Shown in pieces: positions 7,279 through 44,713 of a stretch of 64,000 bases of DNA (within the stretch, counting starts at the first letter, position 1; each line of letters begins with the position of its first letter). The stretch spans positions 22,613 through 86,612 of the forward strand of contig JAMCRP010000001.1 of the NCBI GenBank assembly GCA_023380635.1, in the 5' to 3' direction. The position numbers and the translations under genes are program-made. The notes under the pieces are model-generated. The model ran no database searches. It was not told the DNA's origin and worked only from the letters and a program-made list of their open reading frames with translations. Source of the DNA: Patescibacteria group bacterium. GTDB lineage: Bacteria; Patescibacteriota; Microgenomatia; JAMCZE01.

Positions 7279-7854
7279 ATGGCCATGATTGGGGTGACTG
7301 AGTTGCGGTCAGGGACCGTCTTCGAGGATCCGTTAGTCGGAAACGGACCTTGGGTCGTGCTTAAGTACGAGCATGTCAAAATGGGCCGGGGAACGGCAAC
7401 CATCAAAGTAAAAATCCGCAATTTAAAAACGGGGACCACGATCGAAAAGGCTTTTATTAACGGGGCTCGGGTTTCCGAGGTAATTCTGGAAAAGAAGCGC
7501 GGGCAGTACCTCTACCGTGACGGTGCCAATTTAGTTTTTATGGAACCCTCAACTTACGAACAGTTTGAGACCCCTCAGGATCTGGTCGGCGAGGCAGCAA
7601 AATTTCTTAAAGAGGGTACCGAGGTAGACCTAAAAATGTATGAAGGCCAAGCGCTTTCCGTCTCCTTACCGCTAAAAATGAAGTTTGAAATTACCGACAC
7701 CGAACCGGGTTATAAAGGCAACTCAGTGACTAATATCTACAAAGACGCGGTTCTTGAAACCGGCGCCCGCATTAAAGTTCCCATGTTTGTTAATCAGGGA
7801 GAAATGGTCGTGGTAAATACCGATTCAGGAGAATACGTCGAACGGGCTAAGTAA
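7279..7854 (+). CDS. efp: Elongation factor P
   Basis: Typical EF-P N-terminus (ELRSGTVFEDPLVGNGPWVVLKYEHVKMGRGTATIKVKIRNLKTG), three OB/KOW-like domains, 191 aa. Confidence 0.9.
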   Translation: MAMIGVTELRSGTVFEDPLVGNGPWVVLKYEHVKMGRGTATIKVKIRNLKTGTTIEKAFINGARVSEVILEKKRGQYLYRDGANLVFMEPSTYEQFETPQDLVGEAAKFLKEGTEVDLKMYEGQALSVSLPLKMKFEITDTEPGYKGNSVTNIYKDAVLETGARIKVPMFVNQGEMVVVNTDSGEYVERAK

Positions 7855-8344
7855 GGCTCCAAAGCAGGAAAGCTCCGGCCACCGCCACCTGAGAAATTAC
7901 TCCCCATGGGGCCATAAGCCGTGCGTCAAACCAGAGATCGTGGATATAGTGCTGGAATTTGTAAACACCTTTGGAAACGGGATTGTCAAAGCGGGGAAAA
8001 ATATACGGTGCTTCCAGAAGATCAGGAGACTGGGCCACCAAGATCGCGATAAAGAAATACGCCGGATCAACAGATGGTCCCCGAAGAAGATAAAAGGCGG
8101 CGGCAGCAACAAAACCAAGGATAATATCAGCCGAAGTTTCCAGAGCAATCCGCTGGTGACTCTTGTTCTTATTGGTCATAATGTCCCAATGGGGAACCTT
8201 GTCCAAAAGCAGGTGAGAAGTAAAAACGAGCGGTAGACCAATGGCGGGATTAGTGACTTTGGAAACGATAGCCGCAGCAATTATCGAGTGCGCCGTTAGC
8301 GTCATCTTTTTAAGTTGTTTTTTTAGTATAGCAGCCCTTGTCAA
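7847..8344 (-). CDS. Hypothetical integral membrane protein
   Basis: 165-aa ORF with 3-4 predicted TM helices; start may be the internal Met (MTLTAHSII). No motif recognised. Confidence 0.4.
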   Translation of the reverse strand: MTRAAILKKQLKKMTLTAHSIIAAAIVSKVTNPAIGLPLVFTSHLLLDKVPHWDIMTNKNKSHQRIALETSADIILGFVAAAAFYLLRGPSVDPAYFFIAILVAQSPDLLEAPYIFPRFDNPVSKGVYKFQHYIHDLWFDARLMAPWGVISQVAVAGAFLLWSLT

Positions 8345-8369: not shown

Positions 8370-9668
8370 TTGGGCCCGTATTTGGGGCCTAATATTTTGC
8401 TTAAGATGGCCCGGGCTTTGAAGAATATTACTTTTTTTCAAGTTCTGAAGATCGATGCCTTTCGTAACCTCTGGCTTTCCCAACTGCTATCTCAGGTGTT
8501 TTTAAATCTGCTCTTTTTCTCCCTCATGATCCGAATTTATGAAATTACCCGGAGCAATTCCGCCGTTTCGGTTGTTGTCCTGCTGGTGACAATCCCTAAC
8601 ATTTTTTTGGGAGCCTTAGCCGGCGTTCTGGTAGACCATTGGGGGCGCAAGCCGGTAATGTTTTTCTCCCATTTCCTGCGCGTTCTGGCGGTGCTGGCGT
8701 TTCTGGTCTCGGCAGAAACAATTGGCTGGCTTTACTCCCTGGTTTTTTTAATTAGTATTATTACCCAGTTTTTCTTCCCGGCGGAAGCGGGAACGATCCA
8801 TGAAGTGGTTAAGGATCAAAAACTCCTCTTAACGGCTAACAGCCTTTTTTCCGTGACTTTTTTTGCTTCGGTAATTGTGGGTAATGTTTTGGCCGGACCG
8901 TTTCTGCAGCTTTTCGGGCCGCAGTGGACATTCATGGTCGTGGCGATGGCTTTTTTAGTTGCCTCGGTTTTCACCAGCAGACTTCCGGGAAAACCGGTTT
9001 GGGAATTTACTCAAACCCACCGGGAATTGGATTTTGCCAAACTTTTCAGCGACTTTCTGGTAGGTTTGGATTATCTTTATCATAATCCGGTTGTCCGGCG
9101 GGGAATTTATCTTTTAGGAGCCTCTCAGATTACCATCGGGATCCTAGGGGTCATTGCTCCGGGGTTTGCAGACCAGGTTTTACATTTGCCGGTCACAGAT
9201 GTTTCGCTTTTGGTCATGGCTCCGGCGGCCGCCGGGATGGTATTGGGGGCGGTTTCCATCGGTCAATTTATGGGTGGCTTTAAACGGGAAAACCTGATTC
9301 AGGGCGGCTTTTTAGCGGCAGCGCTGGTCTTGATAATTTATTCTCTGGTGGATAAATTGGCTGGCCCGACGGGTTTACCGGTAATTCCGATCAGTCTGGT
9401 AATTCTTCTGACCCTTGGTTTTACCAATGCTTTTTTAGATATTCCGGTCAACACCTTAATTCAGGAAAATACGCCTCCCGAGATTCGCTCCCGGGTTTAC
9501 GGAGTAGTTTCTTCAGTGATTGGTCTGGCCGGAGTGGTGCCGATTGTCCTGTCCGGAGCCTTGGCGGATGTTATCGGCGTACGGTTTGTGATGATGTTTA
9601 CCGGCATAATCCTTTTGATCCTGGCGATAAAGTATAATAGAGAAACTTATGCTTCCAGTTCTTCTTAG
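8370..9668 (+). CDS. MFS-family transporter
   Basis: About 12 hydrophobic helices, MFS-like GxLxDRxGRKP motif (GALAGVLVDHWGRKP); 432 aa. Start possibly at the internal Met at 8406. Confidence 0.7.
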   Translation: MGPYLGPNILLKMARALKNITFFQVLKIDAFRNLWLSQLLSQVFLNLLFFSLMIRIYEITRSNSAVSVVVLLVTIPNIFLGALAGVLVDHWGRKPVMFFSHFLRVLAVLAFLVSAETIGWLYSLVFLISIITQFFFPAEAGTIHEVVKDQKLLLTANSLFSVTFFASVIVGNVLAGPFLQLFGPQWTFMVVAMAFLVASVFTSRLPGKPVWEFTQTHRELDFAKLFSDFLVGLDYLYHNPVVRRGIYLLGASQITIGILGVIAPGFADQVLHLPVTDVSLLVMAPAAAGMVLGAVSIGQFMGGFKRENLIQGGFLAAALVLIIYSLVDKLAGPTGLPVIPISLVILLTLGFTNAFLDIPVNTLIQENTPPEIRSRVYGVVSSVIGLAGVVPIVLSGALADVIGVRFVMMFTGIILLILAIKYNRETYASSSS

Positions 9669-10680
9669 GGTCGGCCCGGTCACTATTTACAGCTTTGGGG
9701 TTTTTTTAAGCCTGGCGGTTCTTTTGGCCTCATTTCTGGTTTGGAAGCAGGCCCGCAAAAAGGGTCTGCCGGAAGAAAAAGTTTTCGACACTTTTATTTT
9801 AACCATTTTTGTCGCCATAATCTTTGCCCGGCTGGGCTATGTTTTTTCCCACTGGGAGGTGTTCGGGGCAGATCCGTCGCGGATTTTTCTGTTTAATCAT
9901 TACGCCGGGCTGTCTTTTCCCTGGGGTTTTGCCGGAGGATTAGTCGCCGCCATGGTAAGCTCGCACATTTTAGAATTGGAAAGCCTTCTGATTCTGGATT
10001 ATTTTGCTCTGGCTTTCTCCTGGGCGGTTACCGTCGGCTGGGCAGGGTGTTTTCTTGACGGTTGTTTGGTGGGCGCCCCGAAATATCTTCTCCCGGCAAT
10101 GCTGGTTATTTTTGCCGCCATTGCCGCACTCCTTTTGGCTCTTAACTATAAAATTAATGCTAGCCCCAAATTGGTTGATTTAGCGCGTCGCCCCGGGCTT
10201 TTTATGTCTTCCTACTTGATTTTTTTCCTGAGTTCATTTTTAATACTTGGTGAAGCTACTGGCAGCGCGGAAAAGGTTATTTACCTGGCGATAATTGCTG
10301 TTAGCGGCATTGTCTTTATGGTCAAGTTTCCTGCATCGGTATTAAAACAGATTAAAACCTACCTCGAAGAGAAACACCGCGACGCGGAACACCGGCTGCA
10401 TGATCTTAAAAAAGAAGATCCGTTCGCGGATAATTCCCGGCTCTTGGATCGGGCATCGGAGGATACGGAAGCAGCAGCCAAGGCCGGACATGAACGCGTC
10501 GCCGCCATGCAACAGCAATTAAACCTCGTGATGGTTTCGACCCGCAAGGCTCTGACAAAGATTAAAATCGGTAAATACGGCATCTGCGAAGGCTGCGGCA
10601 AGATGATTGATACGGACCGTTTGGCCGCTATGCCGACAGCCACCCTTTGTTTATCCTGCGAAAAGAAGCGGGAGCGCTAA
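9649..10680 (+). CDS. Fusion protein: Lgt-like (prolipoprotein diacylglyceryl transferase family) membrane domain + C-terminal DksA/TraR C4 zinc-finger domain
   Basis: N-terminus VGPVTIYSFGVFLSLAVLLASFLV...IFARLGYVFSHW resembles Lgt (IGPVALHWYGL...GGRIGYVL). Lgt signature G-R-x-G-N region is degenerate (GWAGCFLDGCLVG). C-terminus RKALTKIKIGKYGICEGCGKMIDTDRLAAMPTATLCLSCEKK is a DksA/TraR CxxC-x17-CxxC finger; 343 aa. Confidence 0.55.
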   Translation: MLPVLLRVGPVTIYSFGVFLSLAVLLASFLVWKQARKKGLPEEKVFDTFILTIFVAIIFARLGYVFSHWEVFGADPSRIFLFNHYAGLSFPWGFAGGLVAAMVSSHILELESLLILDYFALAFSWAVTVGWAGCFLDGCLVGAPKYLLPAMLVIFAAIAALLLALNYKINASPKLVDLARRPGLFMSSYLIFFLSSFLILGEATGSAEKVIYLAIIAVSGIVFMVKFPASVLKQIKTYLEEKHRDAEHRLHDLKKEDPFADNSRLLDRASEDTEAAAKAGHERVAAMQQQLNLVMVSTRKALTKIKIGKYGICEGCGKMIDTDRLAAMPTATLCLSCEKKRER

Positions 10681-11414
10681 TGTCTCCACGAATTATCTTC
10701 GAAGACGACGCACTTCTGGTGATTGATAAACCTGCGGGAGTGGTAGTTAACCGGGCGGAAACAGCCGCGAAATCAGAGACGATTCAGGATTTCGCGGAAT
10801 TTAAAATTTTAAATTTAAAATTTAAAATTGTAACGGAAATAGAAAAGGAGTTTGCCAGCCGGGCGGGTATTGTCCATCGGTTAGATAAAGACACTTCAGG
10901 TGTACTGGTAATCGCCAAGACTCCCCAGGCATTCGAGAACTTAAAGAATCAATTTAAAAACCGGGAAACGACCAAAAAGTACCTGGCCCTGGTTCACGGG
11001 GAAGTCTATCCCGCCGCTGGCACGATAAAAGCCCCAATTGAACGCAATCCCTTTAACCGGATGCATTTTGGTGTTTTTCCCGGAGGAAGAAAGGCGGAAA
11101 CGAAATATCGGATGCTTAACTATCTTAAGGATCTTAAGAATTTTAAGTTCACTTACCTCGAATGCGAACCGAAAACGGGCCGAACTCATCAAATTCGGGT
11201 TCATTTAAAATACCTCAACCATCCCCTCGTTTCTGATCCGATTTACGCAGGAAGAAAACAGTCGAAACAGGATCTAACCTGGTGTCCGCGGCTTTTTTTA
11301 CACGCCGCTTCACTGACTTTTCGTCATCCGGTAACGGACGAAGTGATGTCATTTTCTTTGCCGCTGCCTTCCGATCTTCAGAGTGCATTAGATAAGCTGG
11401 TCAAAGTAGACTAA
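10647..11414 (+). CDS. RluA-family pseudouridine synthase
   Basis: Catalytic motif HRLDKDTSGVLVIAKT, LVHG, and GRTHQIRVHL motif; 255 aa. Contains AT-rich tandem repeat aatttaaaattttaaatttaaaatttaaaatt (10800-10830) encoding EFKILNLKFKIV. Confidence 0.85.
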   Translation: MFILRKEAGALMSPRIIFEDDALLVIDKPAGVVVNRAETAAKSETIQDFAEFKILNLKFKIVTEIEKEFASRAGIVHRLDKDTSGVLVIAKTPQAFENLKNQFKNRETTKKYLALVHGEVYPAAGTIKAPIERNPFNRMHFGVFPGGRKAETKYRMLNYLKDLKNFKFTYLECEPKTGRTHQIRVHLKYLNHPLVSDPIYAGRKQSKQDLTWCPRLFLHAASLTFRHPVTDEVMSFSLPLPSDLQSALDKLVKVD

Positions 11415-11439: not shown

Positions 11440-13116
11440 TTGATGGTATCTCTGTTGGTAGTTTTCCTGGTGGCTTTTTTAGGCGCCTGGGTTGCCAAGA
11501 AACTTAATCAGCCTGTTTTAACCGGTTATCTTCTGGCCGGTTTAATTTCGACAATTATCCTCGGTCCGGTTTTCCAGACAGCGGATCTTAACGAACTGGC
11601 AGATCTGGGGCTGGCTTTTTTAATGTTTGTCGTGGGGATGGAATTTTCTTTCCGCAGGCTTAGCCGGGTGCGCAATATTGCCGTTTTCGGAGCTATTATC
11701 CAGATGGTTCTAACGACCATAATTTTCTCCTTCTTTACCGGATCGATCCTTACCGGCGTAGTGTTTTCTCTGTCATCGACGGCGATTGTCGTGAAGCTGC
11801 TGTCGGAAAGGGGAGAGCTCGATACGCTCCCGTCGGAAATTATGGTTGGCTGGCTTTTGGTTCAGGATCTGGCGGTCGTGCCGATTTTAACCGTTTTGCC
11901 CGCCATATCCGTGGGCGGTTCGCTTAACTCGATGGTTTCCGCCCTGACTTTTTCGCTTCTTAAGGCAGCGGTTTTACTGTACCTCGTTTTAATTCTCGGC
12001 AAAAAGATTGTGCCCAGGCTTTTAACCAAGGTAGCAGAAACCGGCAGTCGGGAAGTGCTTCTAATTGCTGTTGTAGGGCTGGTCTTGCTTTCGGCAGCAG
12101 TAACCAGTTATTTTGGTCTGTCTTTTGCTCTCGGGGCGTTTCTGGCCGGGCTATTAATTGCTGAGGGAGCTTCGCAGCACGCGATTTTCAGCGAGATCCG
12201 GCCCCTGCGGGATGTGTTTGCCGTGGTCTTTTTTGTGACGCTCGGGGTTTTGGTTTCGCCGCAGTTTTTGGCAGCTAATTGGTTAATGGTTCTTAAATTT
12301 ACCCTCTTGGTAATTCTTGTAAAGTTTGTCGTCAGCCTGGCGGTAACTCTGTTTTTCAAATACCATTTAAAAACGGCTTTACAGGTTGGTTTATCTTTAA
12401 CTCAGGTAGGAGAATTTGCTTTTGTGGTGGCTCGCCTCGGGCTTTCCGGAAGTTTGATAGACCAAAACACCTACTCTTTAATTCTGGCGGTGACAATTTT
12501 AACAATGATGGTGACACCCTGGCAGCTTGGTTTAGCGGTGTCCGTTTATGAAGATCTGCGAAAACTGGCAGCGCGCTGGTCGCCCCGGCTCTACGACCTT
12601 TTATTCTCCAGTTTTGATCATTACCGCAAGGAACATTCGGAAGTGGAACTTTCCGATCATGTGGTCATTTGCGGCCACGGCCGGGTAGGAAAACATATCA
12701 CGAGAATTCTGGCTATGGCCGGCGTGCCCTATGTCGTGGTGGACTATAATCACAATGTTACTTCGGAACTGGCAGCAACCGGGGTCCCCACAGTTTTGGG
12801 TGATCCGACCGACCGGGAAGTCCTGGCTTTTTCCGGTATCGGTCGGGCGAAAGCAGTCATGGTGGCAGTGCCGGACCGTTATTCTCAGGAATTAATTATT
12901 GAAAACGCCTTGAACCTTCGCCCGGGCGTCGCGATTGTCTGCCGGTCGCACTTTGAAGAAGACCACCGGCGGCTCTACGCTTTGGGGGCCACGGCGGTGG
13001 TTTCGCCGGAGCTTGAAGCCGGGCTGTCCATGAGCCACCGGGTCCTGGACTCTCTGGGAGTAGACAAGGTGCGGACAGCAACTTATCTTAAGCAAGCGAG
13101 AAGAGAAGTACAGTAA
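11440..13116 (+). CDS. Kef-type (CPA2) cation/proton antiporter with C-terminal RCK/TrkA-N domain
   Basis: About 12-13 TM helices, then a Rossmann motif VVICGHGRVGKHITRIL typical of KefB/KefC RCK domains; 558 aa. Confidence 0.8.
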   Translation: MMVSLLVVFLVAFLGAWVAKKLNQPVLTGYLLAGLISTIILGPVFQTADLNELADLGLAFLMFVVGMEFSFRRLSRVRNIAVFGAIIQMVLTTIIFSFFTGSILTGVVFSLSSTAIVVKLLSERGELDTLPSEIMVGWLLVQDLAVVPILTVLPAISVGGSLNSMVSALTFSLLKAAVLLYLVLILGKKIVPRLLTKVAETGSREVLLIAVVGLVLLSAAVTSYFGLSFALGAFLAGLLIAEGASQHAIFSEIRPLRDVFAVVFFVTLGVLVSPQFLAANWLMVLKFTLLVILVKFVVSLAVTLFFKYHLKTALQVGLSLTQVGEFAFVVARLGLSGSLIDQNTYSLILAVTILTMMVTPWQLGLAVSVYEDLRKLAARWSPRLYDLLFSSFDHYRKEHSEVELSDHVVICGHGRVGKHITRILAMAGVPYVVVDYNHNVTSELAATGVPTVLGDPTDREVLAFSGIGRAKAVMVAVPDRYSQELIIENALNLRPGVAIVCRSHFEEDHRRLYALGATAVVSPELEAGLSMSHRVLDSLGVDKVRTATYLKQARREVQ

Positions 13117-13155: not shown

Positions 13156-13470
13156 ATGCCTAAATTTATTGCCAGGAATGACCCGTTCGTTTGCGAACAC
13201 TGCCGTAAAAAGGTAGAACCAATTAAATATGGCGGTTCTTACCGCAACCACTGCCCATACTGTCTTTGGAGCAAGCACGTGGATAGCGATATGCCCGGCG
13301 ACCGGGCCAATTCCTGCCAGGGTTTAATGGAACCCGTGGCCGTTACCACCCGGCGTACCGGGGAATTTGTCTTAACCCACCGCTGCGTCAAATGCGGCTT
13401 TGAACGCTTTAACCGGATTGCAGGCGACGATGATTTTGCTAAAATAACGGAGTTAAGTACCAGGCACTAA
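13156..13470 (+). CDS. RNHCP-domain protein (small Cys-rich zinc-ribbon-like protein)
   Basis: Contains the eponymous RNHCPYC motif plus CEHC and CVKCG Cys pairs; 104 aa. Confidence 0.6.
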   Translation: MPKFIARNDPFVCEHCRKKVEPIKYGGSYRNHCPYCLWSKHVDSDMPGDRANSCQGLMEPVAVTTRRTGEFVLTHRCVKCGFERFNRIAGDDDFAKITELSTRH

Positions 13471-21672: not shown

Positions 21673-24159
21673 TTATTTTTCCAGCGTGGCGACGGCAGCG
21701 AGATGGTCGCTACTATCAGAAAACCTCATCAGGATAACACCCTGGGTGGCTCGGGATAAGCGGGGAACGGAAACGAGCGGCAGTTTAATCACAATCCCCT
21801 TGGCCGAAGTCAGGATCAGCTGGTCGATATTATCGTCGATGGCTCGGGCGGTGACGAGTTTTCCGGTTTTGGGGGTAATCTGCATCGCCTTAACTCCCAT
21901 TCCCCCGCGACCCTGTTTGGGAAACTGCTTCATTTCGGTGCGTTTGCCGATGCCTTTTTCCGAAACTACCAGAAGATCGCCGTCGTGGGCACATTCCATG
22001 CCGACCACATAATCCTCCTTGGCTAATTTAATTCCCCGGACGCCGATGGTGTCCCGGCCCTGCGGTTTGGCCTGTTTTTCGGCAAAACGAATGGATTTGC
22101 CGTCGTGGGTTACCAGAATAATTTCGTCATTACCTGAAGTCAGCTTGGCCCAAACCAGCTCGTCGTTATCTTCCAGCTTTATGGCGGTTAGGCCGTTTTT
22201 ACGGATGTTGGCAAAATCTTCAATGGGGGTTTTCTTAACCGTACCGCGGCGGGTAGCCAGAAAAACATACTTGGGGGCGTTGGGGATATTTGGGGTGTTG
22301 GGATATGACAGGACTGATTGGACGGCCTCCCCCTGGGCGGTGTTAATAATATTAACGATGGCCTGGCCTTTGGCAGTTCTGCCCGCTTCCGGCAGTTCGT
22401 AAACTTTTGTCTGATAAACTTTCCCTTTGTTGGTAAAGAAAAGGATATTGTCGTGGGCGCTGGCAGACACCAGGTGCTCAATTTCGTCTTCTTCTTTGGT
22501 AGCCATGCCGGTAACGCCTTTGCCGCCCCGCGCCTGGGCGCGGTAGGAGCTGGGCGATAATCGCTTCACATAGCCGGTTTTAGTCAGAGTAACGACCATG
22601 GGGTCATTGGGAACCAGATCTTCTTCGCTAAACTCTCCGACCTTGCCTTTGATAACTTTGGTACGACGCTCGTCGCCGTATTTCTCTTTTAATTTCTGCA
22701 GTTCGTCTTTAATTACTTTGCGAATTTTTTCCGGATGGGCCAATAAATCTTCCAGATAAGCGATTGTCTCGCGCACCATTGCCAATTCGTCTTCAATCTT
22801 TTGCCTCTCGAGAGCGGCCAGACGGCGTAGCTGCATGTCCAAAATGGCTGTGGCCTGAATGTCGGTCAGTTTGTATTTTGCCATTAATTTCGTTTTGGCG
22901 TCTTCGGCGCTGGCGGCTTTTTTAATTAAGTCGATGACTTCGTCGATGTGGTCGACCGCAATTTTTAATCCTTCCAGAATATGCTCCCGGGCTTTGGCTT
23001 CCTTCAGTTCGAATTGGCTTCGGCGGGTGACGACATTCTGGCGGTGCTTTAAGAATTCCTCCAGAATCATTTTCAGAGTCAGGGTTTGCGGCGTCTGGTC
23101 GACCAGAGCAACGATATTGACCGGATAGGAAGTTTGTAATTCGGTATGCTTAAATAAATTATTAAGCACTGCCTGCGGTCTGGCGTCCCGTTTTAGTTCA
23201 ATATAAATCCTCATTCCGCGCCGATCGGATTCATCGCGCAGGTCAGAAATTCCTTCAATCTTTTTGTCCTTGACCAGATCGGCAATCCGGGCGACCAGGT
23301 CAGCTTTATTAATCTGATAAGGAATTTCTGTAACGATAATGGCGGATTTGCCGTTGCTCTGCTCTTCAATCTCGGTTCGCGCGCGAACCACAATTTTGCC
23401 TTTGCCGGTGCCGTAAGCCGCCAGGATTTCCTTCTGGTCGTAAATTATGCCGCCCGTGGGAAAATCCGGGCCTTTGATAAACTGGACCAGATCTTCAACA
23501 GTCGTATTTTCTTCACCCTTATCAATTAAAAAGCAGATGGCGTCGACCACTTCGCCCAGGTTATGCGGCGGGATTTTAGTGGCCATACCCACAGCAATGC
23601 CGTCAGCGCCCATTAACAATAAGTTAGGCAGCAAGGCCGGAAGATAGACCGGCTCGACATCGGTGTTCGAGTAGTTGGGAATAAAGTCGACAGTTTCCTT
23701 TTCAATGTCCGCCAAAAGGGCGTCGGAAACGGCAGCCATGCGGGCCTCGGTGTAGCGCATTGCGGCCGGCGGATCGCCGTCTACTGACCCAAAGTTACCT
23801 TGACCGTCAATCAGCGGATACCTTAAGGAAAAGTCCTGCGCCATACGCACTAGCGCGTCGTAGACCGGAATGTCCCCATGGGGATGGTAGTTTTTTAGTA
23901 CCTCGCCTACAACCGCGGCCGATTTGGCATGTTTACTGCTATGGTGCAGACCAATTTTGTGCATCGCGTAAATGATCCGGCGGTGCACCGGTTTCAGGCC
24001 GTCACGGACATCAGGTAAGGCGCGGCTGACAATAACCGACATGGCGTAATCGAGGTATGCCGATTCCATTTCCGAGGTGATTTCAGAAGAAAGAATCTTG
24101 CCGATTTTCGGATCGAATTTTTCTAGTTCTTCGTTTTTGTGGTTATCCTGTTCGTCCAT
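21673..24159 (-). CDS. gyrA: DNA gyrase subunit A
   Basis: [33 protein letters not shown] (catalytic Tyr region), QRLxxL motif, C-terminal beta-pinwheel repeats; 828 aa. Confidence 0.95.
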
Positions 24160-24250: not shown

Positions 24251-26248
24251 TTAAACTATTAGTCCAGCCAGAAGCAGCGCTACAATGTTTGCCACCTTGA
24301 TCATCGGATTGATCGCTGGGCCCGCGGTATCTTTGTAGGGATCCCCGACTGTATCGCCAGTGACCGCGGCTTGATGCGCCGGACTCTTTTTGCCGCCATA
24401 ATTACCGGCTTCGATATATTTTTTGGCATTGTCCCAGGCTGCCCCGCCGGTCGTCATGGAAACGGCCACAAAAATACCGGTGACAATGGCGCCGACTAGG
24501 ACCCCTCCCAAGGCGACGGGTCCCAGCAGAAAGCCGACGGCAACAGGTACGACCACCGGAATCAGAGCCGGAACCAGCATCTGTTTAATCGCGGCGCCGG
24601 TGACGATAGAAACAGCTTTGCCATACTGCGGTTTTTCCGTGCCCTTCATGATGCCCTTGATTTCTTTAAACTGTCGCCTAATCTCCGTAACAATGGTGCC
24701 CGCAGCAATCCCGACTGACTCCATAAGCAGGGCTCCAAAAAAGTAAGTCATGGCTCCACCCAGGAACAGGCCGATTAAAACTTTGGGGTCAGTCAAAGAG
24801 AAAACCAGGGGCATAGCTGTCCGGATCGCCACTTCCTGAACATAGGCGCCAAATAAAACCAAAGCTGCTAAAGCAGCTGACCCAATCGCATAGCCCTTCG
24901 TGACGGCCTTGGTCGTGTTTCCCACGGCGTCTAAAGCGTCGGTGACATTTCTGACTTTTTCCGGCAGCCCGGCCATTTCGGCAATGCCGCCGGCGTTATC
25001 GGTGATCGGGCCAAAAGCGTCAATGGCCACGACAATACCGGTAAGAGATAACATTGCGGTGGCTGCGACGGCGACGCCGTATAAATTAGCCAGATAATAC
25101 GAGAGCAAAATAGCCACGCAAATGACGATAACCGGCGCGGCGGTGGATTTCATGGAGACGGCCAGGCCGGCAATAATATTGGTTCCGTGACCGGAGTTAC
25201 TGGCGGCGGCAATTCCCTTCACACTGCCATAGTTTTTGGAAGTGTAAAACTCGGTAATCACAACCATGGCAGCAGTGACGCCGATACCAATAAGCGCGGC
25301 AAAATACAAATTAACCCAAGGAAAAAGGGCATTGTCGGCCATCAAATAGGCAGTCAGCGGCAAAAAAGCCAACGCCGAAAAGACCGCGGCGGCAATTAAA
25401 CCTTTATACAAAGCGCCCATAATGCTACGCTTTTTGCCCAGAGAGACAAAGAAAGTGGCAATAATGGAGCCGAAAATAGAAACGGCGCCGATTAACAAAG
25501 GATACAAAGAGGAAACCGGATAATGCGGAAAAACCAAATTACCAAGTAGAAGTGTGGCCACCATGGTGACCACATAAGTTTCAAACAGATCCGCCGCCAT
25601 GCCGGCACAGTCGCCGACATTGTCGCCGACATTGTCCGCAATGACACCCGGGTTTCGTGGATCGTCTTCGGGAATCCCCGCTTCGATTTTGCCTACCATG
25701 TCCGTGCCGACATCAGCCGCTTTAGTAAAGATTCCCCCGCCGATCCGGGCAAAAATGGAAATTAATGACGCGCCAAAACCCAAGGCGGCCAATTTTTCAT
25801 TACCGCCCGGTAAGACAAGGACCGTACTAACCGCGAGCAAAGCTAAACCGGCGACCATTAAACCGGTGACCGATCCCCCATCAAAGCCGACTTTAAGAGC
25901 CGCGCCCAAACCTTTGGTGGCGGCCTGAGCTGTACGGCTGTTGGATCTGACGGAAACACTCATGCCAACGATGCCGGAGGTGGCGGATAAGACCGCTCCA
26001 ATCAAGAAAGCGATCGCTGCAAACGGGCCATACAAATAATAAAGTATTGCTAAGACCAGTAGAGCGACGACGGCGACAACAGAGTATTGTTTCTTGAGGT
26101 AGGCGTTGGCCCCTTCCAAAATAGCCTGAGAAATTTCCTGCATTTTCACAGTGCCGGCCGGGAGGGCTAAAATCCGATTAATCTGCCAGAGGGCGTAAGC
26201 AACGGCCAAAAATCCGGCCCCGAAAGAAGCATAAATCAGATTTTGCAT
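24251..26248 (-). CDS. hppA: Membrane-bound proton/sodium-translocating pyrophosphatase (V-PPase)
   Basis: 16-helix membrane protein with [38 protein letters not shown], and [11 protein letters not shown] motifs; 665 aa. Confidence 0.9.
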
Positions 26249-26292: not shown

Positions 26293-28227
<1,935 letters not shown>

Positions 28228-31772: not shown

Positions 31773-33761
31773 TTAGTTTTTTAAATCAATAAAACAGTTA
31801 GAGGTACAACGGTCGGAAATGTTACTCCCCACCACTGTACCATAGACATCGCCCCCTTGCACCTGCCACCAGGGGGGCGGTACCACCTGGATATTGGCCG
31901 TGGTGGCTGAGCACTGGGAGCCGCCGTTAGTTAAGGTGGCCGTGGCGCTAATGTTGGCCGTTTGGGGGCTGGTGACTTTGACGGCCGAAACGATGGCCGT
32001 GGGGTTAGCCGACGGGTCATCGACAGTAATGGCCCCAGTATTGGAAGAAACCCAGTTAATTGAACTAACCGTGGCCGGGCCGGTAATGACCGGAATAGCC
32101 GTAATGCTCCCCTTTCTGTTGAAGTAGAAGGGATTAGGAATGGTAGGGTTTAAAGTCAGGGTACAGGTGGGACTGATAACGGTGATGGGGGCTGTTACCG
32201 GGGTGGAAGCGGTGCAAGTTCCTCCCCCGACAGCCAGGGTGGCTGTCACCGTTACCGTCGTGCTGCCGGCGTAGTTGGCGTGAATGGTGGCCGGGTTGGT
32301 GGTCGGAGTGGTAATCGTGGCGGCGGCCCCGGAGGTCGGGGTCCAGGAAAAAGTCGCGGCCTGCCCGGCAGGAAGAGTGTTTAAAGTCGTGGAAATGGTG
32401 CGATCCTGACTGACATAAAAAGTGCCGGAAGGACTTAAAACCGGGGTGGTTAAAGTGCAGGTAGGGGCCGCGACGGTGACACAAACAGTGTTGGAACAGG
32501 TATTGGTTCCGGGAGAAAGCGGGGCTGAGGCCGTAAAGCAGGTTTGGCCCACGGTCGTCGCACTGGCCCGGATAGTTACAGTACTACCAGTCGTCCCTCC
32601 GGTAAAGTCAGCTGAGGTTCCGGAAGTCCGGGTCCAGGTAATCGTTCCCAGCGTACCGCCGCTGGCGGCAAAATTAGCCGTCAAAGTCCCGGTGTTACCT
32701 AACTGAAAGGGGCTAGGAACATTCGTGGAAATGGTATTGCTAGCGCAAGTGGCCGGAGCCGGAGCGGAAACGGTGATTTGTTTAGCACTGCCGAGGCCAC
32801 AATAGCTCCAGCCGGTGGGATACCCAAAAGGGTTACCGGTGCACCGGCCGTAAGACGCGGCGGAGTTCACCCGGTTGTAGCCTTGGCAATAAACCCAGTA
32901 GGTCCCGGGATTTTGGAAAGTAAGTTGGGTGTTAACGGGGTTAGTCAGTTTAAGGCTGGTATTGGTGGTACTGCCGACCGTGCCATAGGGGCCACTGGCA
33001 TTGTTAGTGGAAGTGGGGCTGGTCCACAGATCGATCATGGTAGCCCCGTTAGCCGGGGTGTTAGTAAAAGTAACCGGCGTGCCGGTAGTGGCTGTTGCCG
33101 GTCCGGACACGGTGCAGGTGGGGTTACAGTAGACAGGCTGGTTACAGGCATCAGCACAGTTACTGATTTCGTTACAGGAACCAGCCGGAACACAGGAACC
33201 GTCAGCCGGGACCCAAAGACATTGTCCCCAGGCAACATCGCCATATTGCTGTAAAGTGGGGTCGCTGTGGACGGCCCGGGGCGGGCTGCCGGGATTGTTG
33301 TAAATATCCTTACACATGGCTTCAGTCCCCACATTTTCCGGCAAAAGGCAAACCGGGGTCCCGTTTAGGTCCAAGGGGTCGCGCCATTCGTGGTTTAAAT
33401 TTGTTCCGGCCGGCGGGCAGGATAGCCCGCTGCAGCCTGCAGAAGGTTGTAAAGTGCATTTTCCGGTACAAACACTGGTCGTGCCGCTACACATTTGCTT
33501 AGCTTCGGTATTAGTATCGCAGTAATAGATTTCTTGACCGCAGAAAGCATTTCCAACAGTACACTTAGAGGAAATTTGAACCCAACCTCCATTAGTAGAA
33601 CAGCCACTGCCGTAATATTCTCCACCAGAACAGGAGTCACAAGTCCAACTTGAGTAACTTTGAAATTGGCAGCCGGCAAGCACGATATTTTTAGAAAAGA
33701 GAAAAAGAAAGCCTATCAATACAAAGGCAAATATAGCTAAAACTAACCGGCGAAGAGCCAT
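31773..33761 (-). CDS. Large secreted Cys- and Thr/Ser/Gly-rich surface protein (paralog A of the gene at 47477-49453)
   Basis: N-terminal TM/signal, Cys-rich N-domain, long Thr/Gly/Ser-rich Ig-like repeats with PTCTLT junctions, conserved C-terminus PPPWWQVQGGDVYGTVVGSNIS; 662 aa; residues ~94-428 identical to paralog B. Confidence 0.6.
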   Translation of the reverse strand: MALRRLVLAIFAFVLIGFLFLFSKNIVLAGCQFQSYSSWTCDSCSGGEYYGSGCSTNGGWVQISSKCTVGNAFCGQEIYYCDTNTEAKQMCSGTTSVCTGKCTLQPSAGCSGLSCPPAGTNLNHEWRDPLDLNGTPVCLLPENVGTEAMCKDIYNNPGSPPRAVHSDPTLQQYGDVAWGQCLWVPADGSCVPAGSCNEISNCADACNQPVYCNPTCTVSGPATATTGTPVTFTNTPANGATMIDLWTSPTSTNNASGPYGTVGSTTNTSLKLTNPVNTQLTFQNPGTYWVYCQGYNRVNSAASYGRCTGNPFGYPTGWSYCGLGSAKQITVSAPAPATCASNTISTNVPSPFQLGNTGTLTANFAASGGTLGTITWTRTSGTSADFTGGTTGSTVTIRASATTVGQTCFTASAPLSPGTNTCSNTVCVTVAAPTCTLTTPVLSPSGTFYVSQDRTISTTLNTLPAGQAATFSWTPTSGAAATITTPTTNPATIHANYAGSTTVTVTATLAVGGGTCTASTPVTAPITVISPTCTLTLNPTIPNPFYFNRKGSITAIPVITGPATVSSINWVSSNTGAITVDDPSANPTAIVSAVKVTSPQTANISATATLTNGGSQCSATTANIQVVPPPWWQVQGGDVYGTVVGSNISDRCTSNCFIDLKN
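32473..33479. repeat. ~1007-bp tract exactly identical to 48177-49183 (offset 15704 bp) within the paralogous surface-protein genes
   Basis: Track ORFs 32422-32706/48126-48410, 32778-33254/48482-48958 and 33035-33334/48739-49038 translate identically. Manual alignment shows exact identity from 32473/48177 to 33479/49183. Flanks are ~80 percent identical on one side and diverge within ~30 bp on the other. Confidence 0.8.
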
Positions 33762-35491: not shown

Positions 35492-37243
35492 ATGCCCGAT
35501 ACTGCCCAGGTACCGGTAGATGGTGCCGCTTCCCAGAACCGCTCGATTGAGGATGTCCTTTTTGAGAACAAACTGATTACGCCCGACCAGTTAAATCTGG
35601 TCAAGCTGGAATCGGTTAATTCCGGCAAACCCATCGAACAGATTCTGAAAGACCATGGCTTTGCCTCCAGCCAGGACATTATTAAAGCCCGTTCGGAAGT
35701 TCTGGGGATTCCCTACGCTGATCTTTCCGCCAAGGCAATTTTGCCGGAAGTTTTAGGTTTGGTGCCGGAAACTGTGGCCCGGCGCTATCAGGCGGTGCCG
35801 TTCCAGCTGGACCAGTCCGGGGAAACGCTGTCAGTGGCCATGGCCGACCCGCTGGATATTAACGCCATTTCCTTTCTGGAGAAAAAAACCGGTAAGAAAA
35901 TCCGGCCGTTCCTGTCCGCTCCGGAAATTATCAAATCCCTGGTCGACGAACGCTATAACCAGAACTTAACGACGGAAGTGTCGGCGGCTTTGGAGGAAGC
36001 CCCGACGGTGGGTGAATCTGCCGGAGCGGATCTTAGCAAAGTGGAAGGAATTATCCGGGACGCGCCGGTAGCCAAAATCGCTTCTTCCCTTTTGGATTTT
36101 GCCATCAAGTCCCGGGCTTCGGATATCCATATTGAACCTCTGGAGACTCACACCCGGGTGCGTTACCGCATTGACGGTATTCTTTACGAGAAGCTGGTTC
36201 TGCCTTCCCGGATCCACGACGCTCTGGTTTCCCGCATAAAAATTATGTCGGAGCTCAAAATTGACGAAAAAAGGGTGCCTCAAGATGGCCGGTTTAATTA
36301 TAAAAGCGGCGGCAACGAAGTCGATGTCCGGGTGTCAACGCTGCCGACAGCTTTCGGCGAGAAAGTGGTCATGCGGCTATTGCGCAAAAGCGGCGGTGTT
36401 CCCACCTTGCAGGATTTAGGATTGCGCGGCCTGGCGCTTAAAAATCTGGAAACGGCCATTTTGCGTCCTCACGGGATTATTATTGTCTGCGGGCCGACCG
36501 GTTCCGGGAAAACCACGACTTTATACTCCGTTTTGTCGAAAATTAATTCCACTAAAGTAAATATCGTTACTTTGGAAGATCCGGTTGAATACCAAATTGG
36601 CGGGGTCAACCAGGTGCAGATTAACCCGGCCGCGGGACTGACTTTTGCCACCGGGCTGCGGTCGTTTTTACGCCAGGATCCTAATGTTATTCTTGTCGGT
36701 GAAATCCGGGACGGCGAAACGACCGATCTGGCCATTCAGGCTGCCCTGACGGGTCATCTGGTCTTCTCGACTTTGCACACCAGCAATGCTTCCGGAGCTA
36801 TTCCCCGCCTTTTGGATCTGGGCGGCGAGGCGTTTCTTCTGGCTTCATCCATGAACGCCATGGTCGGTCAAAGAATTTTGCGTAAAATCTGTCCCAAGTG
36901 CAAAGAGCCTTATGAACCGCCGGAAATTATGGCCAACGACATCCGCACGGTTTTAGGCAAATACCTCACTCCCGATAAACTGGTTAACGGCAAACTGATG
37001 CTTTATAAAGGCAAGGGTTGTTCGGAATGCGGCGACTCCGGGTTTTTGGGCCGGGTGGGAATTTTTGAAGTCTTACCGGTGACGGATAAAATTGCCAAAC
37101 TGGTCTTGACCCGGGCGGACGCGGGAGAAATTGAAAGACAGGCTGTGGAAGAAGGCATGATGCCGATGAAAGTTGATGGGTACCTTAAGGCCGTTGAGGG
37201 AGTAACGACAATTGAAGAAGTGCTGCGCGTAGCGCAAGACTAA
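35492..37243 (+). CDS. pilB: Type IV pilus assembly ATPase PilB (GspE family)
   Basis: N-terminal GSPII domain, Walker A VCGPTGSGKTTTLYS, Asp box, Walker B, tetracysteine motif CPKC...CSEC; 583 aa. Confidence 0.9.
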   Translation: MPDTAQVPVDGAASQNRSIEDVLFENKLITPDQLNLVKLESVNSGKPIEQILKDHGFASSQDIIKARSEVLGIPYADLSAKAILPEVLGLVPETVARRYQAVPFQLDQSGETLSVAMADPLDINAISFLEKKTGKKIRPFLSAPEIIKSLVDERYNQNLTTEVSAALEEAPTVGESAGADLSKVEGIIRDAPVAKIASSLLDFAIKSRASDIHIEPLETHTRVRYRIDGILYEKLVLPSRIHDALVSRIKIMSELKIDEKRVPQDGRFNYKSGGNEVDVRVSTLPTAFGEKVVMRLLRKSGGVPTLQDLGLRGLALKNLETAILRPHGIIIVCGPTGSGKTTTLYSVLSKINSTKVNIVTLEDPVEYQIGGVNQVQINPAAGLTFATGLRSFLRQDPNVILVGEIRDGETTDLAIQAALTGHLVFSTLHTSNASGAIPRLLDLGGEAFLLASSMNAMVGQRILRKICPKCKEPYEPPEIMANDIRTVLGKYLTPDKLVNGKLMLYKGKGCSECGDSGFLGRVGIFEVLPVTDKIAKLVLTRADAGEIERQAVEEGMMPMKVDGYLKAVEGVTTIEEVLRVAQD

Positions 37244-37244
37244 A

Positions 37245-38312
37245 ATGACAATACAATCACTTTTACAAACTACAATTGACCGGAACGCTTCGGATTTACA
37301 TTTAATTTCGGGTTATCCGTCTACAATCCGGATTGACGGCAATCTCCTCCCTTTGCAACCGGAACCGCTTTCTGACACTGATATCGCCCAAATGCTTTCC
37401 GTCTTTTTAACTCCTGACCAAAAAAAGATTTTTGAACAGAACCACGAACTGGATTTTGGCTACACTTTCGGTAAAGGCAGGTTCCGGATTAATACCTACT
37501 ACCAGAAAGGAGCGCCGGCAGTCGCTTTCCGGTTAATCCCGCTAAGCGTTCGTAAAATCGACGAACTGAACTTGCACCCGGCCTGCCACGATCTGGCGGC
37601 GTTAAAACAGGGTTTTGTCCTGGTGACCGGGCCGACAGGCCACGGTAAGTCCACAACCATTGCTGCCATCATTGAGGAAATTAACGAAAATTTTGGCGGC
37701 CACATTCTGACCGTTGAAGACCCGATCGAGTATATTTTCTCTCCGGCCAAGGCAATTGTTTCTCAGAGAGAAGTCGGCGGTGACACCCATTCCTGGAATA
37801 ATGCCTTGCGGGCAGCTCTTCGCGAAGACCCGAATGTGGTGTTTATCGGGGAAATGCGGGATTTCGAAACAATTGAGGCGGCTTTGACGATCGCCGAGAC
37901 CGGGCATCTGGTTTTTGCTACGCTGCACACCAACTCTGCCGCCCAGTCTATCGACCGGGTGGTGTCCGTTTTTCCGGAAGCCCAACAGGCGCAGGTGCGG
38001 CTTCAGCTTTCCAATACGCTGGAAGCAATTATTTCTCAGCGGCTGGTGCCGATGGTAAGTTCCGGCCGGGTTCCGGCGATGGAAGTGCTTCTGGGTTCTT
38101 CGGCGGTCCGGTCGGTGATCCGGGAAGGCAAAACCCATCTGCTGGATAACATTATCCAGACTTCTATGGACGCCGGAATGTGTACTATGGATATGTCCCT
38201 GGCCCGCCTGGCCGCCGCCGGCAAAATTTCCTACGAGACAGCCCTGGCCTATGCCAATTCTCCTGAAGACCTGAACGGAATTATCAAGAGTAAATCAGTA
38301 ACGGGTTTGTAA
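37245..38312 (+). CDS. pilT: Type IV pilus retraction ATPase PilT
   Basis: Walker A LVTGPTGHGKSTT, GEMRD, AETGHLVFATLHTNSAAQ; 355 aa. Confidence 0.9.
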   Translation: MTIQSLLQTTIDRNASDLHLISGYPSTIRIDGNLLPLQPEPLSDTDIAQMLSVFLTPDQKKIFEQNHELDFGYTFGKGRFRINTYYQKGAPAVAFRLIPLSVRKIDELNLHPACHDLAALKQGFVLVTGPTGHGKSTTIAAIIEEINENFGGHILTVEDPIEYIFSPAKAIVSQREVGGDTHSWNNALRAALREDPNVVFIGEMRDFETIEAALTIAETGHLVFATLHTNSAAQSIDRVVSVFPEAQQAQVRLQLSNTLEAIISQRLVPMVSSGRVPAMEVLLGSSAVRSVIREGKTHLLDNIIQTSMDAGMCTMDMSLARLAAAGKISYETALAYANSPEDLNGIIKSKSVTGL

Positions 38313-38320
38313 AGCCTACT

Positions 38321-39532
38321 ATGAAACAGTTCACCTATCGCATTCGCAAGCCTGACGGGGTGATTGCTACCGGGGTAATTGAAAGCGTTTCTCCGCAGAC
38401 AGCAGCCCGGACTCTTCAGGAGCGTAAATACCTGGTCTTAAACATCGCCGAAAAACGCAGCTGGGATATAAATAGTATTCTGGGCAGTTTTGGCCAAAAA
38501 GCCTCTTCCCGGGAAATCGCCCAGTTTACCCGGCTGCTGGCAACAATGCTTTCGACCGGATTACCGCTGACCGACGCTCTTTCCAATCTGGTAAGCCAGG
38601 CAAAAAACGGCTATTTTCGGGAAGTACTGCAGACAATCATGCATGATGTCCAGGGGGGCGTGGCTCTTTCCGAAGCCATGAACCGTCACCCCAAGGTCTT
38701 TAATGATCTTTATGTCAATCTGGTGAAAGCCGGCGAAGCTTCGGGAAAGGTTGATGAGGCTCTGGCCAAACTGGCGGACACCCTTGAATCCAATCTGGAT
38801 TTTCAGTCCAAGGTTAAAGGGGCCATGATCTACCCGGCAGTGGTGACGGTCGCCATGACCGGCATTGGCTTCTTTATGATCACCAATATCATCCCCCAAA
38901 TCGCTAATGTTTATAAAGAATTCGGGGCCGACTTGCCTCTTCCCACCCGGATTCTGATCGGGATTGCAAATTTTATTACCAATTACACTATTATCGTTGC
39001 CGCGATAATCGGCCTGATTTACTACACTTTCCGGACCCTGAAGAAAAATCCTTCCAGCGAATATTTGATTAACAATTTCTTTTTTAAAATCCCGATTTTC
39101 GGGCCGTTGTCCTGGGAAGTCAATTTGGCGGTGGTCTGCCGGACTTTGGGCACTCTTCTGGCTTCGGGAGTCGCTATTTTAGATGCTTTGCGGATTGTTT
39201 CCAAAACCGTCGGGAATAATTCCTTGCGTTCCGGACTGGTCGAGGCGGCAGCGATGGTGGAAAAAGGCTTGCCTCTTTCTTTGGCTTTGCGGCGCAACGA
39301 AAATTTTCCCATTATGATGTCGCAGCTGATTGCCATCGGCGAAGAAACCGGTACTCTGGATAAAAGTCTGGAGAGGCTCTCAAAATTTTACCAGGACTCG
39401 GCTGAGGTGAAAGTAAAGGCTCTCACGACTCTTCTTGAACCGATAATGATTCTTTTAATGGGCGGCATGGTGGCCGGGTTGGCTCTTGCCGTCTTGTTGC
39501 CAATGTTTAATCTTGTTAATGTTATTAAATAA
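38321..39532 (+). CDS. pilC: Type IV pilus inner-membrane platform protein PilC (GspF family)
   Basis: Two GspF repeats each with a TM segment, conserved LLEPIMILLMGGMVAGLA C-terminus; 403 aa. Confidence 0.9.
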   Translation: MKQFTYRIRKPDGVIATGVIESVSPQTAARTLQERKYLVLNIAEKRSWDINSILGSFGQKASSREIAQFTRLLATMLSTGLPLTDALSNLVSQAKNGYFREVLQTIMHDVQGGVALSEAMNRHPKVFNDLYVNLVKAGEASGKVDEALAKLADTLESNLDFQSKVKGAMIYPAVVTVAMTGIGFFMITNIIPQIANVYKEFGADLPLPTRILIGIANFITNYTIIVAAIIGLIYYTFRTLKKNPSSEYLINNFFFKIPIFGPLSWEVNLAVVCRTLGTLLASGVAILDALRIVSKTVGNNSLRSGLVEAAAMVEKGLPLSLALRRNENFPIMMSQLIAIGEETGTLDKSLERLSKFYQDSAEVKVKALTTLLEPIMILLMGGMVAGLALAVLLPMFNLVNVIK

Positions 39533-39545
39533 AGGAGGTGAAATT

Positions 39546-40025
39546 ATGAAGCAAAGAGGTTTTACTTTAATTGAACTCATGGTAGTAATCTCGGTAATTG
39601 CGATTCTTTCGACGATTGCCCTGTTTGGTTTAAATAAAGCTCAGGCCAGTGCCAGGGATTCTTCCCGGCAACAGATTATGAATGGGATAAGAACTGCTCT
39701 GGAGAGATATTACGGTGACAACCAATTTTATCCGGGACCAGGGGGTGTCGGATATCAATGGAGCGGGGCCTCCGATAGCCCAATAGACACGCTGGTTACA
39801 GGAAAATACCTGGTAATCCCTCCGAAGGATCCTTGTAAAAACGGCACTACAATTCCGAGCACGGGAACGATGGGCGCTTCAGACTGCGCCCCGACAGCTT
39901 ACGCCTATACAGCCACGCAGGCAGACGGAAGCGCGTGTACCACCGCGGATAAAAACTGCACTAAATATACTTTGACTTTAACAAAAGAGGCCGGAGGGAC
40001 CAGCATATTTGTTAGTCCGCAATAA
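39546..40025 (+). CDS. Type IV pilin (prepilin, class III signal) paralog 1
   Basis: MKQRGFTLIELMVVISVIAIL: leader ending in G, then FTLIE with Glu+5. RBS aggagg 8 nt upstream. Track ORF starts earlier at 39486 but the Met at 39546 fits the prepilin leader. Confidence 0.8.
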   Translation: MKQRGFTLIELMVVISVIAILSTIALFGLNKAQASARDSSRQQIMNGIRTALERYYGDNQFYPGPGGVGYQWSGASDSPIDTLVTGKYLVIPPKDPCKNGTTIPSTGTMGASDCAPTAYAYTATQADGSACTTADKNCTKYTLTLTKEAGGTSIFVSPQ

Positions 40026-40028
40026 AGC

Positions 40029-40448
40029 GTGAGGAGAGGGTTTAGTTTAATCGAGATAATGATTGTAGTAGCAGTCGTGGCTCTCTTGGCCACGATTGCC
40101 TTGTTTTCTTTCCGGATCGTCTTGGCTCAGAGTCGGGATGCCAAACGGGCGGCCATCATGCATGATCTGCAGTTCGCCCAGGAACTTTACAAAATCCGCA
40201 ACGAGGAGTATTACTCGACGATTAACACTTTCTGCGGAGTTTACACAGCCTTGGTTAGCGGCAACTATATTACCTATACCCCGGTTGACCCCGGGACCCA
40301 ATCCCCGATCTGCTCTTCAGCCGATGGCGGTAATCCCTTAATCGACAACGCCCTTTATTATTATGTAGCGACGCCGTCTTCGGGAACCTACCTGTTGAAA
40401 TTAGGCAAAGAAGCTGGCGGTTCTGGGGACTTTTTCAGCCCGCAATGA
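40029..40448 (+). CDS. Type IV pilin paralog 2
   Basis: GTG start; [28 protein letters not shown] prepilin N-terminus; 139 aa. Confidence 0.75.
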   Translation: MRRGFSLIEIMIVVAVVALLATIALFSFRIVLAQSRDAKRAAIMHDLQFAQELYKIRNEEYYSTINTFCGVYTALVSGNYITYTPVDPGTQSPICSSADGGNPLIDNALYYYVATPSSGTYLLKLGKEAGGSGDFFSPQ

Positions 40449-40858: not shown

Positions 40859-40868
40859 GGTACGGCCC

Positions 40869-40946
40869 TTGACAAGCGGATTTTTTTATTTCACTATGAA
40901 TACATAGTGGAAAACCTAAAGCCGCCCTCACTAAGGTTATGGCGGC
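40869..40946 (+). promoter_or_regulatory. Candidate promoter (TTGACA ... TATGAAT) plus two hairpins in the leader of pilin paralog 4
   Basis: TTGACA at 40869-40874, TATGAA at 40895-40900 (spacing ~20 bp). Palindrome cactatg-aata-catagtg (40892-40909). gccgcc-N14-ggcggc (40921-40946). Followed by GGGGGG RBS and ATG 40963. Confidence 0.35.
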
Positions 40947-40962
40947 CGAAGGGGGGTGAATC

Positions 40963-41439: not shown

Positions 41440-41441
41440 TT

Positions 41442-41497: not shown

Positions 41498-41510
41498 GTA
41501 GTATTAGACC

Positions 41511-43798: not shown

Positions 43799-43834
43799 AC
43801 GATGCGGCAAATTTTACGCTATCATGTACTTAAG

Positions 43835-44698: not shown

Positions 44699-44713
44699 CA
44701 GTTATTCCTGCCC

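Follow-up and report, generated by a model that had tools for sequence, protein, structure and literature searches.

Fusion of an Lgt-derived membrane domain to a complete DksA-like module in Microgenomates

A 64,000-nucleotide stretch of DNA from a Patescibacteria group bacterium (GTDB lineage Microgenomatia, JAMCZE01; GenBank assembly GCA_023380635.1, contig JAMCRP010000001.1, positions 22,613 to 86,612; hereafter the window) contains an open reading frame (ORF; window positions 9649..10680, forward strand) that runs in a single frame from ATG to a TAA stop codon and encodes a protein of 343 amino acids. This ORF is a genuine gene fusion, kept by selection, of a seven-helix part derived from prolipoprotein diacylglyceryl transferase (Lgt) and a complete DksA-like module. 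We tentatively infer that the Lgt-derived part is a pseudoenzyme that anchors, or senses on behalf of, a membrane-held DksA-type factor of the RNA polymerase secondary channel, a reading that we treat as a serious possibility rather than a probability.

The fused reading frame and its two domains

A profile of the fusion, run exhaustively with HMMER against 1.84 billion representatives, gave 169 matches at E ≤ 1e-30. Both modules were present in 75 of the 146 representatives analysed (clusters at 50% identity), and the fusion claimed by the original prediction thus recurred in related genomes in at least 75 clusters. Pfam detected the two domains together in approximately 50 clusters at 90% identity, down to 35% identity. 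Assemblies carrying the fusion came from NCBI, ENA, JGI, and Logan, individual fused proteins were found on 7 to 14 independent contigs each, and the nearest relatives, as well as many independent assemblies, share the in-frame junction (…F-MVKFP…). At the same syntenic position, close relatives carry a separate Lgt-like gene followed by a DksA-like gene in a different frame, with overlaps of 8 to 70 nucleotides, an arrangement that an assembly error or frameshift could have turned into an apparent fusion. Such an artefact was rejected because the fused frame, with an identical junction, recurred in many independent assemblies; the fusion is therefore not a sequencing error, and we attach almost no likelihood to that explanation. 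The fusion arose through the merging of two adjacent, overlapping genes.

The Lgt-derived domain (residues 1-223; 9649..10317, forward strand) was delimited with Pfam, AlphaFold2, and Foldseek. Each half scored above its Pfam cut-off of 24.9 bits: LGT (PF01790) matched residues 3-188 with 74.4 bits (E = 1.2e-20), over profile positions 1-167 of 240, and zf-dskA_traR (PF01258) matched residues 308-343 with 47.4 bits (E = 1.8e-12). The NCBIfam Lgt equivalogs fell below their cut-offs (TIGR00544, 48 bits against 118.9; NF000778, 65 against 334). In a phmmer search of PDB sequences, residues 3-149 matched Escherichia coli Lgt (5azb). The same structure was the top Foldseek match in the PDB (E = 5e-6, TM-score of 0.60 over 281 columns), followed by DksA2 and DksA, for an AlphaFold2 model of the fusion built with 50 homologues (mean pLDDT 87, pTM 0.73). 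Profile, sequence, and fold comparisons thus agreed with the original assignment of the N-terminal half to Lgt, and the two motifs on which that assignment had drawn were found: an N-terminal helix motif (VGPVTIYSFG, compared to IGPVALHWYG in E. coli) and a GGRIGY-like segment (FARLGYVF, compared to GGRIGYVLF).

In the AlphaFold2 model, membrane helices span residues 15-38, 42-67, 90-107, 112-137, 147-171, 184-199, and 206-225. A truncated Lgt, as might be concluded from the end of the Pfam match at profile position 167, was rejected because AlphaFold2 and Foldseek show all seven helices; according to the model, helices 5-7 are present but too diverged for the Pfam profile. The periplasmic head, which comprises approximately 50 residues in Lgt (E151-P197), is reduced in the model to a nine-residue loop between helices 4 and 5 (residues 138-146). 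As the window protein begins at the equivalent of E. coli P13, strand beta1 is absent. Predicted cytoplasmic segments contain 12 Lys and Arg residues, versus 3 in segments outside. This positive-inside count indicated an N-out, C-in topology, as in E. coli Lgt, and thereby a cytoplasmic DksA-like module, in line with the location predicted earlier for the zinc finger.

Alignment to 5azb and family residue tables confirmed that the Lgt signature is degenerate: residues 130-142 (10036..10074, forward strand) read GWAGCFLDGCLVG, compared to GRLGNFINGELWG. In E. coli numbering, the canonical G142-R-x-G-N-x-x-N-x-E-x-x-G154 has undergone the substitutions R143W, N146C, and E151C. Further substitutions are Y26F and H103P and, in the cluster of membrane helix 6, Y235F, R239F, E243G, and R246T, for which the alignment is less certain since helices 5-7 are diverged. 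Of the E. coli reference sequences used for numbering, residues 13-162 of Lgt and 71-140 of DksA agreed with alignments to PDB sequences; beyond residue 162, the Lgt reference was checked only for Y235, R239, E243, and R246, which match the numbering in the literature.

In E. coli, Lgt function is abolished by Y26F, by R143A/E/K, by E151A/Q, or by loss of the first nine residues; catalysis does not require D129, and R73 contributes a structural salt bridge (PMC4728403). A recent survey listed Y26, H103, R143, N146, G154, and R239 as absolutely required, recorded rare N146C and E151C/D variants, and described a subgroup without R143 and R239, for which an alternative substrate or mechanism was suggested (Legood et al., 2026; PMC13251419). 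The window protein has likewise lost both arginines. Features common to it and E. coli Lgt (5azb/5azc) are the seven-helix fold with its topology, arms 1 and 2, and three structural residues (R73, G99, and D129); it lacks Y26, H103, R143, N146, E151, Y235, R239, E243, R246, the head, and beta1, and it adds a 120-residue cytoplasmic extension to the Lgt fold. The earlier suggestion that the enzyme is inactive or repurposed is therefore well supported, both by the decayed signature and by the loss of many further essential residues.

None of the 75 fused representatives kept R143 and R239 together. Among 41 Lgt-like genes located next to a DksA-like gene, R143 was kept in three and R239 in three, and a few split relatives, such as that at locus L035, retain R143, N146, R239, and E243. 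The two signature cysteines of the window protein (GCFLDGC) are moderately conserved (25 and 24 of the 43 aligned fusions). An intact "Cys-type" signature, GRxGCFxxGCxxG, exists in relatives in unrelated gene contexts, and the window signature looks like a decayed version of it, resembling that of Lgt proteins with N146C and E151C/D (e.g., MSMEG_5408). Its occurrence elsewhere in relatives indicated that the two cysteines of the window protein were inherited. A new metal or redox site formed by these cysteines was considered and rejected, in view of their moderate conservation and their match to the Cys-type signature. Unlike the window gene, the intact Cys-type Lgt genes examined had no DksA-like neighbour. 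Published divergent Lgt groups are stand-alone and belong to other phyla (Deinococci, Anaerolineales, and others), and the survey mentions no members from the Candidate Phyla Radiation (CPR), no DksA partner, and no fusion (PMC13251419).

The Lgt half is under purifying selection, with ratios of nonsynonymous to synonymous substitution rates (dN/dS) of approximately 0.11-0.36 where dS could be computed; these values are approximate because dS was saturated in several pairs. Conservation over all 81 membrane partners is confined to the cytoplasmic side, namely to F29 and W32, where helix 1 meets the cytoplasm, and to WY…G183 of cytoplasmic loop 3. The family shows no such conservation at positions on the outer, catalytic side.

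The C-terminal part of the window protein (residues 224-343; 10318..10677, forward strand) was identified by NCBIfam and PDB profiles and by AlphaFold2 and Foldseek as a complete DksA-like module. It consists of a helical hairpin (229-256 and 271-305) and a C4 zinc ribbon detected by Pfam zf-dskA_traR (CEGC-x17-CLSC, with C313, C316, C334, and C337; 10585..10659, forward strand). The last 113 residues aligned with positions 3-110 of the 113 positions of NCBIfam DksA_like (NF033459) and also with the YteA family. This end-to-end alignment showed that the C-terminal part is a whole DksA-like module and not a finger alone: the CxxC-x17-CxxC finger of the original prediction was found as described, but its size of 60 residues had to be corrected to approximately 120, hairpin included. 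In phmmer and profile searches of PDB sequences, the tail matched DksA, DksA2, and TraR, and Foldseek returned DksA2 and DksA at a probability of 1.0. The module shares 55-78% identity with stand-alone proteins of 120 residues. AlphaFold2 placed the loop of the hairpin tip at residues 257-272 (10417..10464, forward strand), with the sequence DPFADNSRLLDRASED.

The four cysteines are invariant across the aligned fusions, as are D257, P258, R264, and D272 in the tip, with D267 and A269 nearly so. D261 is conserved in or beside the tip loop, H281 and E282 are invariant or nearly invariant, and the conserved acidic residues lie in or beside the modelled hairpin loop. Hairpin, CxxC-x17-CxxC ribbon, and acidic tip residues are held in common with DksA (1tjl), DksA2 (4ijj), and TraR (6n57), while the size of approximately 120 residues corresponds to that of the short DksA-like, YteA, and YlyA proteins of Gram-positive bacteria. 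The tip motif, EDPF-D--R--D-A--D-E, is particular to the window module. The protein stops six residues past the last Cys, which leaves no helix beyond the finger. Unlike DksA and TraR, the module either is covalently part of a polytopic membrane protein or has a gene that overlaps the gene for one; to our knowledge, all characterised DksA/TraR members are soluble.

Fused and split forms across Microgenomates

A profile scan of species-representative genomes yielded 249 confirmed loci, of which the best 80 were classified. Eight of these 80 were fused, 30 were split with an adjacent Lgt-like gene, 40 had no Lgt-like gene detectable with the family hidden Markov model (HMM), and two lay at a contig end. 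All 40 HMM-negative loci carry a gene for a polytopic membrane protein of approximately 200 residues that abuts the start of the DksA-like gene. Pfam gave no match for these upstream partners from Woese- and Amesbacteria, and hhalign showed them to be homologous to the Lgt-like family (99.9%, E = 2.7e-31, 201 columns). To judge from this alignment, the approximately 200-residue partner is an extreme Lgt derivative. Homology and gene position together placed a pair of membrane partner and DksA-like module in 78 of the 78 evaluable loci. In Woese- and Amesbacteria, the gene for the approximately 200-residue protein (loci L032-L095; e.g., L057, 3372..3965, and L049, 3321..3983) always overlaps or abuts the DksA-like gene, and the family carries the motifs W[KR][KR]L[KR]EDY…IF and WYKSGKxGF. 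The pair also occurs in Roizmanbacteria, in which the major facilitator superfamily (MFS) and RluA-type neighbours found in the window are absent.

Fused and split states are intermingled on a rough neighbour-joining distance tree, so that at least three fusion/split transitions are implied; some of these calls in metagenome-assembled genomes (MAGs) could be indel errors, with both states backed by multiple independent contigs. Identity to the window protein was 45-85% for the DksA-like half versus 17-66% for the Lgt half. A search with the C-terminal half found more than 1,500 stand-alone proteins of approximately 120 residues, the best 120 listed being 52-81% identical, and fused and stand-alone modules were nearly indistinguishable by sequence. 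Many species-representative third-party MAG records titled "uncultured Gammaproteobacteria/Pseudomonadales bacterium" (loci L016-L095), as well as one each titled "Nevskiaceae" and "Clostridia", contain clearly Microgenomates-type loci, and their organism labels look wrong.

The domain junction of the window protein coincides with an internal ATG (Met224; 10318..10320, forward strand) that lies where the stand-alone DksA-like genes have their start codon (MVKFP…). A Met residue occurred at or next to this position in all 43 aligned fusions and in 59 of the 75 fused representatives. No clear Shine-Dalgarno (SD) sequence precedes the ATG of Met224 in the window; in another fused locus (L008), AAGGAG lies 6 nucleotides upstream of the internal ATG. 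Most genes in the window (e.g., those starting at 6317, 7279, 9649, and 35492) have AT-rich upstream regions without a recognisable SD sequence, a pattern that suggests SD-independent initiation in this genome. Because ordinary window genes mostly lack an SD sequence, its absence before Met224 is uninformative, and a free 120-residue product initiated at the junction start codon is possible.

Gene neighbourhood and other features of the window

The fusion is preceded by an MFS transporter gene (8370..9668, forward strand; Pfam MFS_1, 1.4e-36, and MFS_3, 3.5e-15), the end of which overlaps the start of the fusion by 20 nucleotides. This overlap makes the MFS gene the first gene of an apparent operon. 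Downstream, the ATG of an RluA/RluD-type pseudouridine synthase gene (10680..11414, forward strand; Pfam PseudoU_synth_2, 5.1e-33) overlaps the stop codon of the fusion (TAATG). From these overlaps, the MFS, fusion, and synthase genes are predicted to be translationally coupled. An RluA-type gene directly follows the DksA-like gene in nearly all of the approximately 95 loci.

Further members of the conserved block are a Kef-type cation/proton antiporter gene (11440..13116, forward strand; Na_H_Exchanger and TrkA_N), identified by Pfam and synteny, and a small RNHCP-domain zinc-ribbon gene (13156..13470, forward strand), which follows the Kef-type gene in most syntenic loci. Between the genes for EF-P and the MFS and Lgt-like proteins, an ORF on the opposite strand (7847..8344) encodes a membrane protein of approximately 155-165 residues without a Pfam match; its synteny extends from the window as far as Woesebacteria (L057, 2880..3344, reverse strand). 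For every fused gene that was looked up, the order was EF-P, small membrane ORF, MFS, fusion, RluA-type synthase, Kef-type antiporter, RNHCP, and TGT.

Elsewhere in the window, two paralogous secreted proteins of approximately 660 residues without a Pfam match are encoded on the reverse strand (31773..33761 and 47477..49453). Their N-termini carry lipobox-like sequences (…NIVLAGCQF… and …NQVFAGCTM…) after a hydrophobic segment, followed by Cys-rich sequence. Should these paralogues be genuine lipoproteins, an active Lgt would have to exist somewhere in the organism. A strict lipobox scan of the window proteins gave no matches. A second Lgt homologue was not found by phmmer or tblastn in a search that covered the 64-kb window.

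A complete type IV pilus cluster, recognised by gene content, occupies 35492..46981 on the forward strand. It includes genes for a PilB-like T2SSE ATPase, a PilT-like ATPase, PilC (T2SSF), a prepilin peptidase, PilM with PilN/O-like proteins, and several pilins with N-methylation motifs. A membrane H+-pyrophosphatase gene (24251..26248, reverse strand; Pfam H_PPase, 843 bits) is flanked by two large ORFs on the same strand (21673..24159 and 26293..28203), which were taken to be gyrA and gyrB on the basis of N-terminal sequence alone.

A membrane-held secondary-channel factor and its alternatives

Repeated natural fusion of two proteins argues, by the Rosetta-stone principle, that they work together. 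In the mechanism that we propose, the Lgt-derived domain would no longer lipidate proteins and would instead anchor a DksA-type secondary-channel factor in the membrane, perhaps also sensing lipids or the envelope on its behalf. The factor would be held at the cytoplasmic face of the membrane, covalently in species with the fused gene and probably through protein-protein contact in those with split genes. Tethering might either restrict how far the factor can reach RNA polymerase or direct its action to the membrane of very small cells, and the junction start codon may additionally yield the free 120-residue form. The coupling of envelope status to transcription that the original prediction raised is likewise a hypothesis.

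Several observations weigh against this mechanism. Conservation of the junction Met, together with the SD sequence inside the fused gene at L008, suggests that activity may reside in the free form. Only some three residues (KFP) separate helix 7 from the hairpin in the window protein, and so short a linker could hinder docking into the polymerase channel. Binding of RNA polymerase by the module is itself a prediction from homology, and the scores of the module lie below the cut-offs of NCBIfam DksA_like (51-55 bits against 105), dksA (44-46 against 115.5), and yteA (59-63 against 134). One alignment reads the tip as RxxDxA versus the classic DxxDxA, so that an invariant Arg may occupy the position of the first Asp; profile alignments disagree on the register. 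Finally, the [LF]-A-G-C N-termini of the two paralogous window proteins, recognised by eye, imply that the organism may need an active Lgt.

Some of these observations would fit a tolerated, near-neutral fusion of independent neighbours, with the factor made alone from the internal start and the membrane domain serving an unrelated role. The genes overlap, so one indel merges them; the junction Met recurs in the aligned fusions and in most fused representatives, one fused gene has AAGGAG before its internal ATG, fused and split states interleave on the tree, and the modules of the two states are nearly alike in sequence. Adjacency in all evaluable loci, even where the flanks differ as in Roizmanbacteria, speaks against near-neutrality, as do the persistence of at least 75 diverged fused clusters with intact frames and the fact that the membrane partner is conserved on its cytoplasmic face, the side of the DksA-like module. 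We regard this scenario as rather unlikely. Retention of Lgt activity, by an unorthodox mechanism or with another lipid donor, and with the DksA-like tail in an accessory or regulatory role, seemed less plausible still. The published subgroup without R143 and R239, for which an alternative substrate or mechanism was suggested (PMC13251419), would provide a precedent, and purifying selection on the domain, the lipobox-like N-termini, the absence of another Lgt homologue from the window, and the residues kept by split relatives such as L035 all point in this direction. Against it, nine active-site or adjacent positions are substituted, several of them experimentally essential in E. coli, and four of the substitution types tested inactivate the enzyme. 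In addition, the head domain and beta1 are absent, positions on the outer catalytic side are unconserved in the family, and in half of the lineage Pfam does not recognise the partner as Lgt.

A further alternative places the action of the module elsewhere in the cytoplasm than at RNA polymerase: for example, it could work with the co-transcribed RluA-type rRNA pseudouridine synthase or with ribosomes, or have a structural part in a membrane complex. The RluA-type gene is almost always next, EF-P and TGT genes are nearby, no agreed DxxDxA register emerged from profile alignments, and a helix after the finger is missing. The end-to-end alignment with DksA-like and YteA models nevertheless favours a role at the polymerase, as do the nearest solved structures, which are those of the RNA-polymerase-binding proteins DksA, DksA2, and TraR, and the invariant acidic residues, which cluster at the tip of the hairpin as they do in secondary-channel factors. 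A site of action other than RNA polymerase was judged improbable.

Membrane-held regulators are known from other systems, such as RseA-sigmaE, Mlc held by PtsG, and ToxR/CadC. They follow the same logic as the membrane-held secondary-channel factor proposed here, in that a module that binds the transcription machinery is kept at the membrane by a possible envelope sensor. They show no sequence or fold kinship with the pair, and the window protein would represent a secondary-channel factor on a pseudoenzyme anchor instead of a sigma- or DNA-binding protein. In Bacillus subtilis, ylyA adjoins ileS and affects transcription of germination genes; we take it to lie beside lspA and rluD as well, an arrangement reminiscent of the order lipoprotein enzyme, DksA-like gene, and rluD in the window. 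A literature search returned no description of an Lgt-DksA fusion, a membrane-anchored DksA, DksA in Patescibacteria, or lipoprotein maturation in CPR. Database labels for these proteins are inconsistent, either "prolipoprotein diacylglyceryl transferase" or "DksA", and it is likely that neither describes the role of the pair.

The pair would represent a clear case of a pseudoenzyme retained for a non-catalytic role, and within a single gene neighbourhood the family grades from near-canonical Lgt into proteins unrecognisable as Lgt. The pair also raises the question whether these organisms lipidate proteins at all. It is conceivable, although we consider it doubtful, that the pair is a Microgenomates-wide signalling device in which a former lipoprotein-processing enzyme reports the state of membrane lipids or the envelope directly to RNA polymerase. 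A membrane-bound factor of the DksA/TraR type would be a new form of wiring from the envelope to RNA polymerase. If the pair is such a device, its naturally fused forms would show that a secondary-channel factor can function in a membrane-attached state; the pair would then constitute a new class of membrane-tethered transcription regulator and perhaps a principal growth-control circuit of ultra-small cells that are poor in regulators.

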